Shown here: positions 1,210-7,027 of the stretch, one piece after another | How the letters are laid out: the number at the start of each line of letters is the position of its first letter | Numbering within the stretch: position 1 is the stretch's first letter | Notes under the pieces: model-generated | What the model was told of the DNA's origin: nothing | What the model saw: the letters and a program-made list of their open reading frames with translations, nothing else | Databases searched by the model: none | Program-made: the position numbers and the translations under genes | Virus genome (UHGV): UHGV-0099692 | Strand: one strand, 5' to 3' | DNA length: 24,703 nt | From: a virus

Positions 1210-1294
1210 AGTCAGAGATAACAATCAACTAATACTGTTTCGTTGATTTTTGCTTGTAATTGGCGTTCTGGTCTGATTTTTGTGGAGTAAGTTG

Positions 1295-1678
1295 ATGCGT
1301 GATATTCAGATGGTTCTTGAGCGTTGGGGAGCGTGGGCGGCTAATAATCATGAAGATGTGACCTGGTCGTCCATTGCCGCCGGTTTTAAGGGATTAATTA
1401 CTTCAAAAGTAAAATCTCGCCCGCAATGTTGTGACGATGACGCGATGATTATTTGCGGGTGCATGGCCCGTCTGAAAAAGAACAACAGCGATTTGCACGA
1501 TTTATTAGTAGATTATTATGTAGTCGGTATGACATTCATGTCACTGGCAGGTAAGCATTGCTGCTCTGATGGTTATATCGGGAAAAGGTTACAGAAGGCT
1601 GAGGGCATAATTGAAGGGATGTTAATGGCATTAGATATCCGGTTAGAGATGGATATCGTTGTTAATAACTCTAATTAA
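1295..1678 (+). CDS. quuD: Late-gene antiterminator Q (QuuD-like, 127 aa)
   Basis: [26 protein letters not shown]... with Cys-rich motifs ([15 protein letters not shown]); matches remembered DLP12 QuuD. ATG at 1295 preferred over the TTG at 1280 of the ORF track. Confidence 0.88.
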
Positions 1679-1711
1679 TATGCCAATTGTTTACTAAAAA
1701 TTATTAAAAAT

Positions 1712-1729
1712 GGGGCGTTGAGACGCCCC
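1712..1729 (-). terminator. Hairpin GGGGCGT-tgag-ACGCCCC; on the minus strand followed by a T-rich run (candidate nmpC 3' terminator)
   Basis: 7-bp GC-rich stem with 4-nt loop seen directly; minus-strand downstream sequence is ATTTTTAATAATTTTT. Lies about 140 nt beyond the nmpC stop. Confidence 0.35.
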
Positions 1730-1817
1730 CAAAAATAAAGGGTAATATATAACAGAAGGTTTATATAGTTAGAAGCAAGGTTGTGCTCCTAAAGGAAGTG
1801 GCTTGAGGGAGCCACTT

Positions 1818-1857
1818 ATATGTTGGGGAGGCAAAGCCTCCCGCAACATATCTTTTA
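1818..1857 (+). terminator. Strong intrinsic terminator-like hairpin, + strand (end of Q operon or tR'-like)
   Basis: ATATGTTGGGGAGGC-aaa-GCCTCCCgCAACATAT, about 15 bp stem with a one-base bulge, followed by CTTTT on +. Sits between the Q stop (1678) and the convergent nmpC stop (1867). Confidence 0.45.
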
Positions 1858-1866
1858 GTAATCAAA

Positions 1867-2949
1867 TTAGAACTGGTAAACCATACCTACAGCAACGATA
1901 TCATCGGTAGCAACGCCAGATGCTTTCGTGAAATCGCTCTTATCAATCAGGTTGATTTTGTAATCAACAAAAGTGGACATATTTTTGTTGAAGTAATAGG
2001 TTGCACCTACATCAATATATTCAACCAGGTCCTGATCACCCCACGCACCCAAGTCTTTTCCTTTAGATTGCAGGTAAGCAACGGACGGACGCAGACCGAA
2101 GTCGAACTGATATTGTGCAACTACTTCGAAGTTTTGTGCTTTGTTGGCAATATGGTTATTACCAAAAACAGTCATGTTCTGGGTTTCAGAATAGGTGGTA
2201 GCCAGATAGATGTTGTTCGCATCATATTTCAGACCAGCTGCCCATACTTCAGCATTTTGACCAGATGCATTCAGGCTGTTGTTACCGTAGATAACCTGAT
2301 TATTAGTGCGGTCAGATTTAGCATAGGTTGCACCTACACCGAATCCTTCATACTCATAAGTAGTGGAGAAACCGAAACCATCACCATTAGCTTCAGTTAC
2401 GTCAGTGCGGTCATTTTTACCCTGATACTGAGCAGCAAAGTTCAGACCATCAACCAGACCAAAGAAGTCATTGTTACGATAAGTTGCAACACCTGTGGTG
2501 CGACCAGTCATGAATACATCTGTTTGGGTCCAGGTATCGCCACCGAATTCTGGCAGAACGTCGGTCCATGCACCAATATCGTATGCTACACCGTAGTTAC
2601 GGCCATAATCGATGGAGCCGTAGTCACCGAATTTCAGGCCAGCGAAGGCAAGACGGGTTTTATCTTTGGAGGAACCTTGAGATTCAGCGCGGTTGCCTTT
2701 GAATTCATATTCCCACTGACCGAAACCAGTCAGTTGATCGTTGATTTGGGTTTCACCTTTGAAGCCAAGACGGGCATAAGTAGTATCACCATCATCTGCA
2801 TCATTAGAGGAGAAGTAGTGCTTAGCATTAACTTTCCCGTACAGATCCAGCTTGTTACTGTCTTTATTATAAATTTCAGCTGCCTGAGCAGACATCGCCA
2901 TCAGTACTGATGCAGCTACAGCAGAAATTGCCACTGTTAATTTTTTCAT
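1867..2949 (-). CDS. nmpC: Outer-membrane general porin, NmpC/OmpD/OmpC family (360 aa), apparently intact
   Basis: Minus-strand ORF; start taken at [30 protein letters not shown] (Sec signal peptide, ATG complement at 2947-2949); porin motifs ([28 protein letters not shown]) and C-terminal ...VGMVYQF ending in Phe. The ORF-track start at 3009 adds 20 unsupported residues. Confidence 0.93.
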
Positions 2950-3375
2950 CGTGAGCCCTTTTTTTGAACTATTATTAAAAAATGATGTCACTGCGCGATA
3001 AATATTCATCTAATCAATGTGATTATTTCAAGATGTAAGTTTTGGTTTCTCATTTGATTTGTGAAGTAGATCTCTATTTTTATCTGAACTTTTTCTATCG
3101 AATCCTATTCATGGCTCTTGGCTGAATAAAAATAAATCTATTAGCCAATTTATATTAATGGCTGTTATTTATAAGTGCTCTATAATTTGAAGGTTCAATT
3201 TAAACCAGCTAAAAATAACGCTGGAAATTATTTGTTGGTTATTTGTTGAGATTTGCTTATGTATTTGTAGTGGTGTTTTCAATACTCGGTAGCATTCTCG
3301 CAAATATCATTTAGTGGTTTACGTACGTAAAAAATTGGTTATGCTGTTAAGAGTGGTTACTTCGTCACACAGCTT

Positions 3376-3400
3376 AAACCCGCCGTCGAGCGGGTTTTTC
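3376..3400 (+). terminator. Intrinsic terminator-like hairpin upstream of the holin gene (tR'-like candidate)
   Basis: AAACCCGC-cgtcga-GCGGGTTTTT followed by CCATTTTTT; GC stem plus U-tract on the + strand, 137 nt upstream of the holin start; no + strand ORF precedes it. Confidence 0.5.
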
Positions 3401-3536
3401 CATTTTTTGAGTCTCGATATTAGCTGATAACCCAATACCTGAGTTATTCACTGACTCCGAGTCTGTTACGTTTCTGCTTTTTTGCGATACGTTGTATTCC
3501 CTCAATTTACACCCGCTTTGTCTGCGAGGTGGGGTT

Positions 3537-3752
3537 ATGAAATCCATGGATAAGTTAACAACGGGTGTCGCCTATGGCACCTCAGCAGGTAGTGCCGGTT
3601 ACTGGTTTTTACAGCTGCTCGATAAAGTCACGCCCTCACAGTGGGCAGCAATAGGTGTGCTGGGTAGCCTGGTATTTGGCCTGCTGACGTACCTGACAAA
3701 CCTTTATTTCAAGATTAAAGAAGATAAGCGCAAGGCTGCGAGAGGTGAATAA
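3537..3752 (+). CDS. essD: Class II pinholin, phage 21 S-like, dual-start (71/68 aa)
   Basis: [71 protein letters not shown]; Met1-Lys-Ser-Met4 dual-start motif; two TM segments; basic C-terminus. ATG at 3537 with GAGGTGGGG upstream; the ORF-track start at 3492 is an extension. Confidence 0.9.
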
Positions 3753-4249
3753 TGCCTCCATCATTACGAAAAGCCGTTGCTGCTGCTATTGGTGGCGGAG
3801 CAATTGCTATAGCATCAGTGTTAATTACTGGCCCAAGTGGTAACGATGGTCTGGAAGGTGTCAGCTACATACCATACAAAGATATTGTTGGTGTATGGAC
3901 TGTATGTCACGGGCATACAGGAAAAGACATCATTCCCGGTAAAACGTATACCAAAGCAGAATGCAAAGCCCTCCTGAATAAAGACCTTGCCACGGTCGCC
4001 AGACAAATTAACCCGTACATCAAAGTCGATATACCGGAAACAATGCGCGGCGCTCTTTACTCATTCGTTTACAACGTGGGTGCTGGCAATTTCAGAACAT
4101 CGACGCTTCTTCGCAAAATAAACCAGGGCGATATCAAAGGCGCATGTGATCAGCTACGTCGCTGGACATATGCTGGCGGTAAGCAATGGAAAGGTCTCAT
4201 GACTCGTCGTGAGATTGAGCGTGAAATCTGTTTGTGGGGTCAGCAATGA
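3752..4249 (+). CDS. rrrD: SAR endolysin (T4-lysozyme/GH24 fold, phage 21 R-like), 165 aa
   Basis: Start overlaps the holin stop (TAATG); N-terminal Gly/Ala-rich weakly hydrophobic signal-anchor-release segment ([21 protein letters not shown]) followed by a lysozyme catalytic region (GLEGV...[16 protein letters not shown]). Confidence 0.9.
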
Positions 4250-4713
4250 ACAGAGTAACCGCGATTATCTCCGCTCTGGTTATCTGCATCATCGTCTGCC
4301 TGTCATGGGCTGTTAATCATTACCGTGATAACGCCATTACCTACAAAGCCCAGCGCGACAAAAATGCCAGAGAACTGAAGCTGGCGAACGCGGCAATTAC
4401 TGACATGCAGATGCGTCAGCGTGATGTTGCTGCGCTCGATGCAAAATACACGAAGGAGTTAGCTGATGCGAAAGCTGAAAATGATGCTCTTCGTCGCAAG
4501 CTTGATAATGGTGGCAGGGTGCTCGTCAAAGGAAAATGCCCTGTGCCATCCTCAGCCGAAACCTCCAGCGCCTCCGGCATGGGCAATGATGCCACCGTCG
4601 AACTCTCTCCAGTTGCTGGACGAAACGTTCTCGGTATCCGGGACGGAATTATCCGCGACCAAACAGCACTGAGAACGCTTCAGGAATACATCAGGACGCA
4701 ATGCCTTCGATGA
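4246..4713 (+). CDS. rzpD: Rz-like inner-membrane spanin (i-spanin), 155 aa
   Basis: ATG overlaps the endolysin stop (ATGA); N-terminal TM helix ([20 protein letters not shown]) then a charged coiled-coil-like periplasmic domain; directly after the endolysin. Confidence 0.85.
4466..4672 (+). CDS. rzoD: Rz1-like outer-membrane lipoprotein spanin (o-spanin), embedded in the +1 frame of Rz
   Basis: AAGGAG at 4453-4458 then ATG at 4466; [19 protein letters not shown] has a lipobox (VAGC); proline-rich mature region ([16 protein letters not shown]) typical of Rz1; entirely inside Rz in another frame. Confidence 0.8.
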
Positions 4714-4931: not shown

Positions 4932-5219
4932 ATGGATGAAGAATATCGTAAAGACCTGCAATTGTGGTTTGGCCTGACGCATGCGTCGTTCTGCGTGATG
5001 CCGAGAGTATTCATGGAGGCTATGCCGCAAGAATGGCAAGAGAAGATGGCGCAGTTGCTTTTTGAGTATGGCGACACGATCAAAACGGATGTCTGCGGAG
5101 TTCACTGCTGTTTCGTTACTGCCAAAGACGGCAACAACCGCTTTATGAGGATGCCAGAAGATATTCTGAACTATCGTCATCCCCGGCGTGAGTTCATCGA
5201 ATCATTTCTGAAGAAGTAG
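4932..5219 (+). CDS. Hypothetical protein (95 aa), function unknown
   Basis: Only substantial + strand ORF in this interval, co-directional with the late operon; four Cys (C21, C55, C59, C60). No family recognised from memory. Confidence 0.5.
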   Translation: MDEEYRKDLQLWFGLTHASFCVMPRVFMEAMPQEWQEKMAQLLFEYGDTIKTDVCGVHCCFVTAKDGNNRFMRMPEDILNYRHPRREFIESFLKK

Positions 5220-5312
5220 CCATTACAAAGTCTATCTGCGGGGGGCTTGATAAAGGTGCTTTCACCTCGCTTAGCATGGTATGTTCTGACTACCAACTTT
5301 TTGGGAGGACAC

Positions 5313-5537
5313 ATGGAACTGATAAATGGACGGCCAGGCAGAGATTTTATAGTGGGAACATATACCTACTCAGAAATTAAAGATCTTAACTTCATGGCTA
5401 AGGAAGAGAAAAGAGCTCGTGAAGAGCTAAAGCATCGGGGTTACGAATTGGCGTATATCAAGGCGGACTCTGAATGTAACGGGATGTTTGTCAGGGCGTA
5501 CCGGGTCTATACTGACAAAGCGCCATCTAATGTCTAA
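5313..5537 (+). CDS. Hypothetical small protein (74 aa), function unknown
   Basis: ATG at 5313 preceded by GGGAGGA (5303-5309); MELINGRPGRDFIVGTYTYSEIKDLNFMAKEEKRAREELKHRGYELAYIK...; the ORF-track start at 5247 lacks an RBS. Confidence 0.5.
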   Translation: MELINGRPGRDFIVGTYTYSEIKDLNFMAKEEKRAREELKHRGYELAYIKADSECNGMFVRAYRVYTDKAPSNV

Positions 5538-5672
5538 ATATACCTCGGGCGGTTTTTTACGTTCATTACCGTACGCAATTACAGCAGGCATTCATTGAGT
5601 GCCTGTGATAATGATTTATCAACGTGCTTGCAAACGGTATTCTAGACCTCCAATTATCCTAAGGAGGTTTTT

Positions 5673-6077
5673 GTGGTTAAAAATTTAGAATACATGAAGG
5701 GGATGCTTGAGGTATTTTTGAAAGCGAAAACTCCCTTTATATCTACAAAAGACTTAGCTAATGCGGGGTACGATATCTGCTCGAATGAAGGGATGTTTCA
5801 TTATCTACTTCTTATTGAGCAAGGTTATATCAGTAATAAAGATCTAATAACGGATGACATAACTAAACTGGGCTACATGCGCCATTGTGGCCATATGCTA
5901 GATATGGGTACCGACGTGCGACTATCTGCGCAGGGACAAGAATTCGCCCAGGCATTAAATGAACCTACGGTTTTTGAGAAATTAAAGTCAATGAGCGATG
6001 CCCCTTTGAGTACAATCAAAGATGTTGGGCTGGAGTTAACGAAGGCCTATTTAAAGAAGAAATTTGGCCTCGAGTAA
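5673..6077 (+). CDS. Hypothetical protein (134 aa) in an AT-rich segment, function unknown
   Basis: GTG start 7 nt after a canonical AAGGAGG (5660-5666); composition markedly more AT-rich than flanking phage genes; no TM segment or signal peptide; no recognised family. Confidence 0.55.
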   Translation: MVKNLEYMKGMLEVFLKAKTPFISTKDLANAGYDICSNEGMFHYLLLIEQGYISNKDLITDDITKLGYMRHCGHMLDMGTDVRLSAQGQEFAQALNEPTVFEKLKSMSDAPLSTIKDVGLELTKAYLKKKFGLE

Positions 6078-6478: not shown

Positions 6479-7027
6479 ATGAAGGTTAATAAAAAGAGGC
6501 TTGCCGAAATTTTCAACGTGGACCCGCGGACGATTGAACGCTGGCAGTCTCAGGGACTCCCTTGCGCCTCCAAAGGTAGTAAGGGCATTGAATCTGTATT
6601 TGATACTGCCATGGTAATTCAGTGGTATGCGCAGAGGGAAACTGATATCGAAAACGAAAAGCTCCGCAAAGAACTGGACGATTTGCGTGCGGCAGCGGAG
6701 TCAGATTTACAACCCGGCACCATTGACTATGAACGCTACCGGCTCACAAAAGCGCAGGCAGATGCGCAGGAACTGAAAAATGCCCGTGAAGACGGAGTAG
6801 TGCTGGAAACTGAACTGTTTACCTTCATTCTGCAACGTGTGGCACAGGAGATTTCGGGGATACTTGTGCGTGTGCCGTTGACATTACAGCGTAAATATCC
6901 GGACATTTCACCATCACACCTTGATGTGGTGAAAACTGAAATCGCGAAAGCCTCCAATGTTTCAGCTAAGGCCGGTGAAAACGTGGGCGGGTGGATCGAT
7001 GATTTCAGACGCGCAGAAGGCAGCTAA
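6479..7027 (+). CDS. nu1: Terminase small subunit (lambda Nu1 homologue), 182 aa
   Basis: [28 protein letters not shown]... N-terminal winged-HTH; strong similarity to remembered lambda Nu1 (e.g. [28 protein letters not shown]); immediately downstream of cos. Confidence 0.93.

Follow-up and report, generated by a model that had tools for sequence, protein, structure and literature searches.

In the window, by which is meant the whole 24,703-nucleotide stretch of viral DNA analysed here, the late promoter very probably lies just upstream of the holin gene; on the basis of homology, pR' is placed at 3318-3345, the start of transcription at A3352 and an intrinsic terminator at 3376-3402. The surrounding genes form a late-control module of a lambdoid prophage, of the DLP12/qsr' type, whose layout is common and ordinary. 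Since that layout puts a porin cassette between the antiterminator gene Q and pR', the late promoter that had seemed to be missing is found and the arrangement needs no exceptional status.

The order of genes described in the first-pass annotation, with Q ending at 1678, a reverse-oriented porin gene and a holin gene from 3537, is borne out by Pfam profiles and by the list of open reading frames. Q is of the quuD type and is encoded on the + strand (1295-1678, 127 aa; PF06530, E 3.5e-53, profile positions 1-118 of 118). Convergent with it, on the - strand at 1867-2949, is an intact OmpC/NmpC-type porin of 360 aa with a signal peptide (PF00267, E 3.1e-153, profile positions 1-337 of 337), to which matching genomes and phages give the name ompC, nmpC or OmpD. 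The lysis genes follow on the + strand and resemble the annotated sets of 434B and phage 21; they encode an S21-type holin/antiholin (3537-3752; PF04971), a SAR-type endolysin (3752-4249; PF00959), Rz (4246-4713; PF03245) and, embedded in Rz and taken from the reading-frame list, Rz1 (4466-4672).

Gene order and orientation are the same as in DLP12/qsr' of E. coli K-12 (quuD-nmpC-essD-rrrD-rzpD/rzoD), an arrangement also carried on 434B, and each component of that module was found: quuD, the reverse nmpC-type porin, essD, rrrD, rzpD/rzoD and near-identical non-coding DNA. Protein alignment shows Q to be identical to K-12 QuuD; the DNA between Q and the stop codon of the porin gene is about 98% identical, and the pR' block shows no difference from -38 to +68 and a single one further upstream. 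The two copies differ in that the porin is broken by IS5 in K-12 and 434B but intact in the window, and the window has no bor gene after Rz. The module is already known, since, of 5426 complete E. coli genomes, 2464 contain at least 80% of a 2-kb module query.

The evidence that locates pR' comes from the Stx phages 933W, H-19B and Sakai Sp5, whose Q proteins belong to the same family (77-81% identity; for 933W Q, 77% by protein alignment and 77.8% by tblastn). Window positions 3317-3399 are 77-78% identical to a stretch that in Stx phages of the 933W type overlaps the Q gene at its 3' end. This block of 933W is annotated as pR' and tR' in Y10775.2; NC_000924.1 marks pR', qut and two terminators there, and describes its Q protein as 'similar to Q protein of H19B and DLP12'. 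Aligned with the annotated 933W promoter, the window has a -35 element TTTACG (3318-3323), a 16-nt spacer and a -10 element TATGCT (3340-3345) on the + strand, and the homology to the Stx phages takes in the -35, the -10, the start region, the 'qut' stretch and the first terminator; the H-19B record itself carries no regulatory annotation. In all listed relatives with an upstream Q homolog the hexamer at the -10 position is nAnnnT, the middle bases being variable. One of the two placements offered in the first-pass annotation, a late promoter displaced to about 3200-3370, is thereby supported and narrowed.

The assignment is made by homology because the two hexamers match the consensus at 8 of 12 positions, a score that does not exceed those of eight other sites in the AT-rich 500 bp, and are no better than chance sites nearby; the corresponding hexamers in Sakai Sp5 are called at 9/12. 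A default promoter scan (at least 9/12) gave no + strand promoter in 1679-3536 and a relaxed scan gave ten sites at 8-9/12, so that consensus scanning does not discriminate. With the default scan empty and the real candidate at only 8/12, it is understandable that no convincing hexamers had been recognised earlier. The best -10 in the gap is a perfect TATAAT at 3181-3186, which scores 9/12 with ATGGCT as its -35 and would, as the late promoter, give a leader of about 210 nt to position 3402, near the length of lambda 6S RNA and resembling lambda's distance to the terminator of 194 nt. However, its -35 is poor, it lies in cassette DNA that porin-less relatives with the same Q family lack, and chance matches are to be expected in so AT-rich a region, the scan giving 3 sites against a mean of 6.7 in shuffled sequence, fewer than expected; it is very improbable that late transcription starts there.

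The predicted start at A3352, 7 nt past the -10 of the preferred promoter at 3318-3345, is transferred from Sakai Sp5. The PR' start was mapped by experiment in Sp5 and Sp15, and published data for Sp5 give the start from dRNA-seq, the 3' end of a 258-nt RNA from Term-seq, and cleavage by RNase E at +173, between GU and AUU (PMC7547250). All three RNA ends fit a +1 at A1046 of the Sakai sequence (L010), 7 nt past TATCAT, and A1046 aligns with A3352 of the window. The start region and leader TGTTAAGAGTGGTTACTTCGTCACACAGCTT (3345-3375, + strand) are conserved, with invariant columns in a six-way alignment, and the stretch annotated as 'qut' in 933W (NC_000924.1) corresponds to 3359-3366. The leader has no clear -10-like pause element, the sole candidate being TACTTC at 3358-3363 (+7 to +12), which is TACATT in 933W and in most relatives is without the final T. 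Both a pause element here and a binding site for Q are putative. In a genome-wide study of sigma-70 pausing, essD, nmpC and quuD are not mentioned in the text or supplements.

A tR'-type intrinsic terminator, called by the scan and homologous to the first 933W terminator, occupies 3376-3402 on the + strand (+25 to +51). Its hairpin (3376-3397) has an 8-bp stem, AAACCCGC/GCGGGTTT, a 6-nt loop and the tail TTCCATTTTT; the U-tract, including the stem's own terminal T residues, reads TTTTT at 3398-3402, then CC and a run of six T residues at 3405-3410. Among 56 distinct leaders from relatives, 54 have a hairpin with a T-rich tail at +23 to +62, and 25 different stems occur among them. From the terminator to the holin start (3403-3536) neither folding nor scanning found a second strong terminator, and this part of the leader is conserved with Shigella phage SfII up to 3531. 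The efficiency of 3376-3402 as the decisive terminator is uncertain because the homologous first hairpin of Sakai Sp5 is apparently read through to give the 258-nt RNA (PMC7547250); promoter use and termination in this particular prophage are likewise presumed from its relatives.

Between the Q stop codon (1678) and the -35 (3318) are 1639 bp, so that pR' is not directly 3' of Q, the layout known from lambda, 21, 82 and 933W. The gap is a trait of layout that the mechanism of Q does not need, and many relatives share the separation. The other placement that had been offered was a promoter right after Q (1679-1860), from which Q-modified polymerase would run 1.1 kb antisense through the porin gene and silence it on induction. 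This draws only on analogy with the gene order of lambda and on the stable hairpin at 1818-1857, which with its short U run could be read as tR', and yet no + strand site reaches 9/12 there and nothing in 1679-1866 resembles the pR' block of the family. The segment belongs to an inserted porin cassette, being the 3' UTR of the porin together with the minus-strand terminator of that gene, and the true pR'/tR' homolog is at 3317-3402; a promoter after Q can hardly be entertained. A further pair of hexamers after Q, TTGAGA/TAATAT at 1718-1748, was rejected, having a 19-nt spacer and lying inside the porin 3' UTR. With pR' at 3318-3345, past the porin and pointing away from it, late transcription would diverge from the porin gene and not cross it.

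Between Q and the porin the scan called a single terminator, on the minus strand at 1729-1712, where GGGGCGTCTCAACGCCCC is followed by ATTTTTAATA (ATTTTT); it is kept in K-12 DLP12 and PhiR68_2 and is probably the end of the porin transcript. Two adjoining hairpins in the porin 3' UTR (1798-1816 and 1818-1857) are stable on both strands; the folding energy of the pair is -37.2 kcal/mol with z -7.2 for the + strand, and for the - strand it is -34.2 kcal/mol with z -6.4. The + strand tail of 1818-1857 is merely CUUUUAGU, which is weak, and the scan did not call this hairpin as a terminator either in the window or in the K-12 copy. Two + strand terminators had been proposed in the first-pass annotation; that at 3376-3397 is called, with its tail TTCCATTTTT, while that at 1818-1857 stands as a stable hairpin but not as a terminator, and is more readily assigned to the porin 3' UTR than to termination in the late operon. 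Its weak + strand tail might nonetheless slow read-through from Q.

The 1798-1857 region is about 98% identical to K-12, and we take it to be what has been described there as ipeX, the IpeX RNA presumably being the sequence from the nmpC/lc stop codon to its rho-independent terminator. The porin of the window with its structured 3' UTR would correspond to nmpC/lc plus ipeX, phage PA-2 having an lc porin with an ipeX 3' UTR RNA, and Castillo-Keller reportedly described, in 2006, the lc/nmpC porin with an ipeX 3' UTR RNA. Rfam, at gathering and at permissive thresholds, gave no family, the porin 3' UTR included; the lone match, a sub-threshold Trp-leader, is produced by the terminator hairpin. 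The porin resembles phage morons such as the lc porin of PA-2 in being a gene with its own terminator, set between transcription units of the phage and expressed in the lysogen (PMC10690425, PMC3333887).

The whole cassette spans 1628-3316 (1.69 kb) and sits at the junction of the Q gene and the Q target site. From left to right it holds an alternative C-terminus for Q, the 3' UTR of the porin, which includes a minus-strand terminator, and then the porin gene with the region upstream of it. By blastn the homology of the window Q to 933W and Sp5 Q stops at about 1627, the last 17 codons being specific to the present module. The right-hand part of the cassette, the AT-rich porin upstream region (2950-3316), is absent from 933W and Sp5, where Q abuts pR'.

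This right-hand part contains a published promoter of the DLP12 lysis genes, 'essDp', which is of the sigma-E type, and Rueggeberg et al. are said to have proposed in 2015 that Q acts through sigma-E there. In PMC7918800, RpoE and a Q-type antiterminator are named as regulators of the cassette, the Q-like factor of DLP12 being reported as a positive regulator of the lysis cassette (Rueggeberg 2013, as given there), and the primers for the '-121 to +650' fragment map to 2877 and about 3659 of the window. These positions put the +1 at about 2998 (A2998), about 540 nt upstream of the holin and about 354 nt upstream of A3352, and a sigma-E-like -35/-10 pair is indeed present in the sequence there, GAACTA (2966-2971) and GTCACT (2987-2992). 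However, the DNA of essDp belongs to the porin cassette and is absent in relatives with the same Q family and pR' block, and a transcript from 2998 would still meet the terminator at 3376-3402. Furthermore, the Q proteins that are known load next to their own DNA site, at a promoter-proximal pause that depends on sigma-70. The reporter fragment also carries the pR' homolog, and since it does, its response to Q cannot separate the two promoters. It is therefore unlikely that the lysis genes are driven by essDp with Q acting through sigma-E, although essDp is possible as an extra stress-responsive promoter besides pR'.

At the pR' of 3318-3345, a perfect 14-bp palindrome, TTTACGTACGTAAA, covers 3318-3331 (-34 to -21) and is followed by an A-tract. 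Among relatives the palindrome changes symmetrically and its class tracks the clade of Q, another class of Q being paired with the palindrome GCGTACGC instead of TTTACGTACGTAAA. From this pattern the palindrome is a candidate for the element bound by Q. In phage 21 the lysis cassette is of the same type (S21 holin, SAR endolysin) and Q is distantly related, the window Q matching the solved structure of Q21 weakly (E 7.6e-7). The late region of phage 21 comprises Q21, pR'21, a QBE, an SDPE and a leader terminator in the first 50 nt; the overall anatomy is shared in that this terminator, annotated at +3 to +50, likewise ends about 50 nt past the start. Alignment found no DNA similarity between the phage 21 pR' and the window promoter, so the Q21 binding element cannot be transferred to the window; in phage 21 two 8-bp subsites, directly repeated, make up this element at -27 to -12 (bioRxiv 10.1101/651190), in contrast to the inverted repeat at -34 to -21 that is the candidate here.

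The arrangement of Q, counter-oriented gene(s) and then the pR' block is also present in SfII and PhiR55_1, and a separation of 0.6-3 kb between Q and pR' recurs with many different inserts in related phages; the junction is a hotspot for mostly counter-oriented cargo. In IMG/VR a 16-mer core was used as the search pattern, and its invariance in that set is therefore fixed by construction. Among the 120 viral contigs carrying it, 94 have a same-strand Q homolog upstream and most of the others have little upstream sequence; at least 5 matches (L039, L050, L056, L065 and L101), with no upstream Q and no shared leader or terminator flanks, look like chance. Taken together, these observations allow a joint reading, plausible but held with rather less than even confidence, in which Q proteins of the QuuD/Q933W family bind a short, co-evolving inverted repeat centred near -28 and the few base pairs from the Q stop codon to this element are a general insertion hotspot in lambdoid phages. 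On such a reading the palindrome would give at least seven specificity classes, each still paired with its own Q across 0.6-3 kb of cargo; the cargo would be mostly counter-oriented and lysogen-expressed, including porins and candidate anti-phage defence genes, and the point of insertion would keep it insulated from late transcription. The junction hotspot and the clade-linked palindrome may be new side results.

The Stx phages place their cargo differently. Their pR' overlaps the end of a 144-aa Q, whereas that of the window is 1639 bp away, and their cargo (tRNAs, stx) is downstream of pR'/tR', and hence Q-dependent, whereas the porin is upstream, reversed and outside late transcription. Sp5 also has a second terminator and a segment encoding the StxS sRNA, both of which the window is without: no homolog of Sp5 segment L010 1100-1303 was found in the window, the match to Sp5 being confined to 3317-3399, and the 258-nt leader, second terminator and 74-nt StxS segment that define StxS are not present.

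A simple course of events can be proposed, in which the late promoter, directed away from the porin, has moved together with the late genes. In the lysogen, sigma-70 polymerase would start at pR' and mostly stop at 3376-3402, giving an RNA of about 50 nt. On induction, Q made from the early rightward transcript would diffuse to pR' and load onto the promoter-proximal complex, and the modified complex would read through into the holin, endolysin, Rz/Rz1 and structural genes. Lambdoid Q proteins are diffusible, and the DNA site at which they load is within the promoter. Since Q is diffusible, and since gaps of 0.6-3 kb between Q and pR' recur with many inserts, Q 'acting at a distance' requires no special mechanism.

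The late switch is thus placed at base resolution, with pR' at 3318-3345, the start at 3352 and the terminator at 3376-3402, and the worry that late transcription collides head-on with that of the porin can go, since the two diverge. Annotation pipelines could locate the pR' of this very common E. coli prophage module by homology, where consensus scanning fails. The sigma-E 'essDp' model for the DLP12 lysis genes deserves re-examination, its reporter fragment holding a canonical Q-family pR' and terminator. Furthermore, if the palindrome is indeed the element bound by Q, it would provide a simple sequence rule for the pairing of a Q allele with its late operon, and such a rule, if true, would bear on the Q-allele-dependent expression of Stx.

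At its start the window carries lambdoid prophage genes of the nin region (ninE, ybcO at 423-713, rusA at 710-1072 and ylcG at 1069-1209). These are followed by a Q antiterminator of 127 aa on the + strand (1295-1678; PF06530, E 3.5e-53), a complete porin of the OmpC/NmpC type on the minus strand (1867-2949; full-length match to PF00267) and, again on the + strand, a lysis cassette of the phage 21 type, made up of holin (3537-3752), endolysin (3752-4249) and Rz with embedded Rz1 (4246-4713). These ORF calls and Pfam matches bear out the coordinates of Q, the convergent porin and the holin in the first-pass annotation. Three + strand ORFs of 95, 96 and 134 aa (4932-6077) separate Rz from the Nu1 terminase gene (6479-7027); no Pfam match was found for them.

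Two positions had been proposed for the late promoter: directly after Q, with late transcription running antisense through the porin and colliding with its expression, or displaced to about 3200-3370, just upstream of the holin. A consensus promoter scan of the AT-rich gap between Q and the holin fails to single out a late promoter. A sensitive homology search with window 2950-3540 as the query supports the second position; 3317-3399 has counterparts of 77-78% identity in several hundred phage records, most of them from Stx phages, and among those listed there are many whose annotated Q is overlapped by the match at its 3' end. The 933W record Y10775.2 labels the homologous segment putative pR' and tR' (the Q-dependent late promoter and its leader terminator); the 933W reference NC_000924.1 labels it pR' (TTTACG-16-TATCAT), 'qut' and, of two terminators, the first, and there Q is described as 'similar to Q protein of H19B and DLP12'. 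Window Q is 77% identical to 933W Q by protein alignment (77.8% by tblastn) and 81% identical to H-19B Q (tblastn). Comparison with Sakai prophage Sp5 by blastn gives two blocks, window 1293-1627 (Q body) and 3317-3399 (pR' block), which are 88 bp apart in Sp5 versus 1689 bp in the window; the porin cassette (1628-3316) therefore sits at the junction between Q and Q's promoter. The cassette also substitutes for the last Q codons, while the promoter remained with the late genes. The last 17 codons of Q (1628-1678) are unlike the 933W type (127 aa for window Q versus 144 aa), and whereas in 933W the Q tail overlaps the -35 of pR', in the window this tail is replaced by the cassette insertion.

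In Sakai Sp5 and Sp15, both of which carry a 144-aa Q of the same family as window Q, the primary PR' start was mapped by dRNA-seq, a 3' end was placed 258 nt downstream of it by Term-seq, and RNase E was found to cut the leader at +173, within GU|AUU (Sy et al. 2020, PMC7547250). The published coordinates belong to an older genome version and were re-fitted on the current Sakai sequence, where GUAUU (1217-1221 of the Sp5 locus) and the end of the second-terminator T-run (1303) jointly fit A1046 alone as +1, 7 nt past TATCAT. In the window this base corresponds to A3352, which lies 7 nt past TATGCT. Sp5 has a canonical-looking first terminator (1069-1097, +24 to +51) and a second one (1275-1303) at the end of the published 258-nt StxS precursor. 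The first hairpin is evidently passed to yield the 258-nt RNA, so either it is leaky or its product of roughly 50 nt was missed by the libraries. In contrast to this pair of terminators with StxS, the window has the first hairpin only (3376-3402), without the StxS segment; scanning and folding revealed no second terminator between 3402 and the holin.

The terminator scan calls the hairpin upstream of the holin (3376-3397, tail TTCCATTTTT) as a + strand intrinsic terminator, as the first-pass annotation had suggested. The same role had been given to a hairpin at 1818-1857; this is a real and stable fold, which together with its neighbour at 1798-1816 is far above shuffled sequence on both strands (z -7.2 and -6.4), but its + strand tail is no more than CUUUUAGU, and it goes uncalled by the scan in both the window and K-12. 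The sole terminator called between Q and the porin is on the minus strand (1729-1712), placed to end a predicted porin transcript about 140 nt past the porin stop codon. No Rfam match was found to the porin 3' UTR (1712-1866 region), which is reportedly the region named ipeX in K-12 and PA-2 (Castillo-Keller et al. 2006). IpeX is also mentioned in PMC10690425 and PMC3333887.

By analogy with the Q21, Q-lambda and 933W/H-19B systems (established knowledge and bioRxiv 10.1101/651190), polymerase in the lysogen would start at pR' and go no further than the leader terminator; Q expressed from the early rightward transcript would diffuse to the promoter and load on the promoter-proximal complex, making the polymerase resistant to terminators. 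A convincing -10-like pause element was not found in the pR' leader, the lone candidate being TACTTC at +7 to +12. Late transcription from the predicted start would run away from the porin, whose start codon is 403 bp distant, so it cannot collide with porin transcription in the way envisaged for a promoter directly after Q. Read-through of the early transcript past Q could still enter the porin antisense; speculatively, it may be limited by the hairpins at 1798-1857 and their weak U tail.

The DLP12 lysis genes may have a further, stress-responsive promoter, the RpoE-dependent 'essDp', which Rueggeberg et al. 2015 are reported to have described. The primers and a '-121 to +650' statement in PMC7918800 would put its +1 at window A2998, and sigma-E-like elements are present on the + strand (GAACTA 2966-2971, 15 nt, GTCACT 2987-2992). 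However, this site is cassette DNA, missing from other members of window Q's family; the reporter fragment, as described there, includes the pR' homolog as well, and a transcript from essDp would still run into the 3376-3402 terminator. On the opposite strand, the start codon of the porin is just 49 nt away from A2998.

The pR' block was followed further by scanning viral contigs for a 16-mer that covers the end of the -10 and the start region, which gave 120 loci. A same-strand Q homolog, 42-100% identical to window Q, is found upstream in 94 of these; most of the others have little sequence upstream, and at least five (L039, L050, L056, L065, L101) are likely chance matches with flanks lacking family sequence. 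Invariance of the 16-mer in the contig set is by construction, as it was the search pattern; it is invariant too in the six sequences retrieved with BLAST. At the -10 position, the printed sequences with an upstream Q homolog share the hexamer nAnnnT, with a variable middle. A hairpin with a T-rich tail lies between +23 and +62 in 54/56 distinct leaders and is built from 25 different stems; a promoter-proximal terminator is thus conserved and no chance hairpin.

A 14-bp palindrome, TTTACGTACGTAAA, occupies -34 to -21 of the pR' homolog (window 3318-3331), and relatives have others at the same place (TTTACGATCGTAAA, GCGTACGC, GCGGTCCGC, TGGAATTCCA, TGTCATGACA, TGTTATAACA, TCGTTACGA). It varies symmetrically, in at least seven classes (loci L003, L007-L010, L014-L129), and the class follows the clade of the upstream Q homolog regardless of the intervening cargo; Q identity is at least 55-75% inside a class and at most 65% between classes. 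Leader and terminator 45-mers are common to different classes. This pattern fits a candidate Q-binding element co-evolving with Q, although part of the association could stem from physical linkage. Because of the palindrome, the minus strand also reads TTTACG (3331-3326); together with a GATATT located 17 nt downstream, this hexamer makes up an 8/12 promoter-like site facing the porin (3303-3331), probably by chance.

Q and the pR' block are separated by one of a set of discrete distances: 38-75 bp where they are adjacent, and otherwise about 630, 800-925, 1100, 1180, 1440-1580, 1670-1690 (porin), 1705, 2275, 2476, 2933 and 3049 bp. With more than 12 cargo size classes (loci L011-L130; for example L014, L015, L017, L029, L038, L072, L078), the junction between the Q stop and pR' is, as judged by sequence comparison, an insertion hotspot. 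Most inserted genes lie on the strand opposite to Q, and some have matches to candidate families of anti-phage defence (PDC-S42; an OLD/HEC-04-type ATPase adjoining a C5 methylase; a PDC-M68A HNH protein); + oriented cargo includes an ORF6N-domain protein. SfII (L007 3082-4696) and PhiR55_1 (L008 1990-2436) are annotated examples of this layout.

The arrangement in the window is the classical qsr'/DLP12 module, a well known and very common prophage module. A 2.6-kb stretch matches phage records at 92-99% identity and 98-100% coverage in the 30 records listed, and at least 80% of it is covered in 36 phage records, among them phage 434B with its DLP12-derived substitution; for a 2-kb query, coverage reaches at least 80% in 2464/5426 complete E. 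coli genomes, with the annotations quuD, ompC and essD. K-12 DLP12 has the same layout, an identical Q and about 98% identity over the stretch that links the end of Q with the porin stop, but its porin contains IS5; in the window, unlike in K-12 DLP12 and 434B, Rz is not followed by bor. The original observation was largely correct: the late switch of the qsr'/DLP12 module is recognisable through homology, and the insertion hotspot and the palindrome are modest leads.
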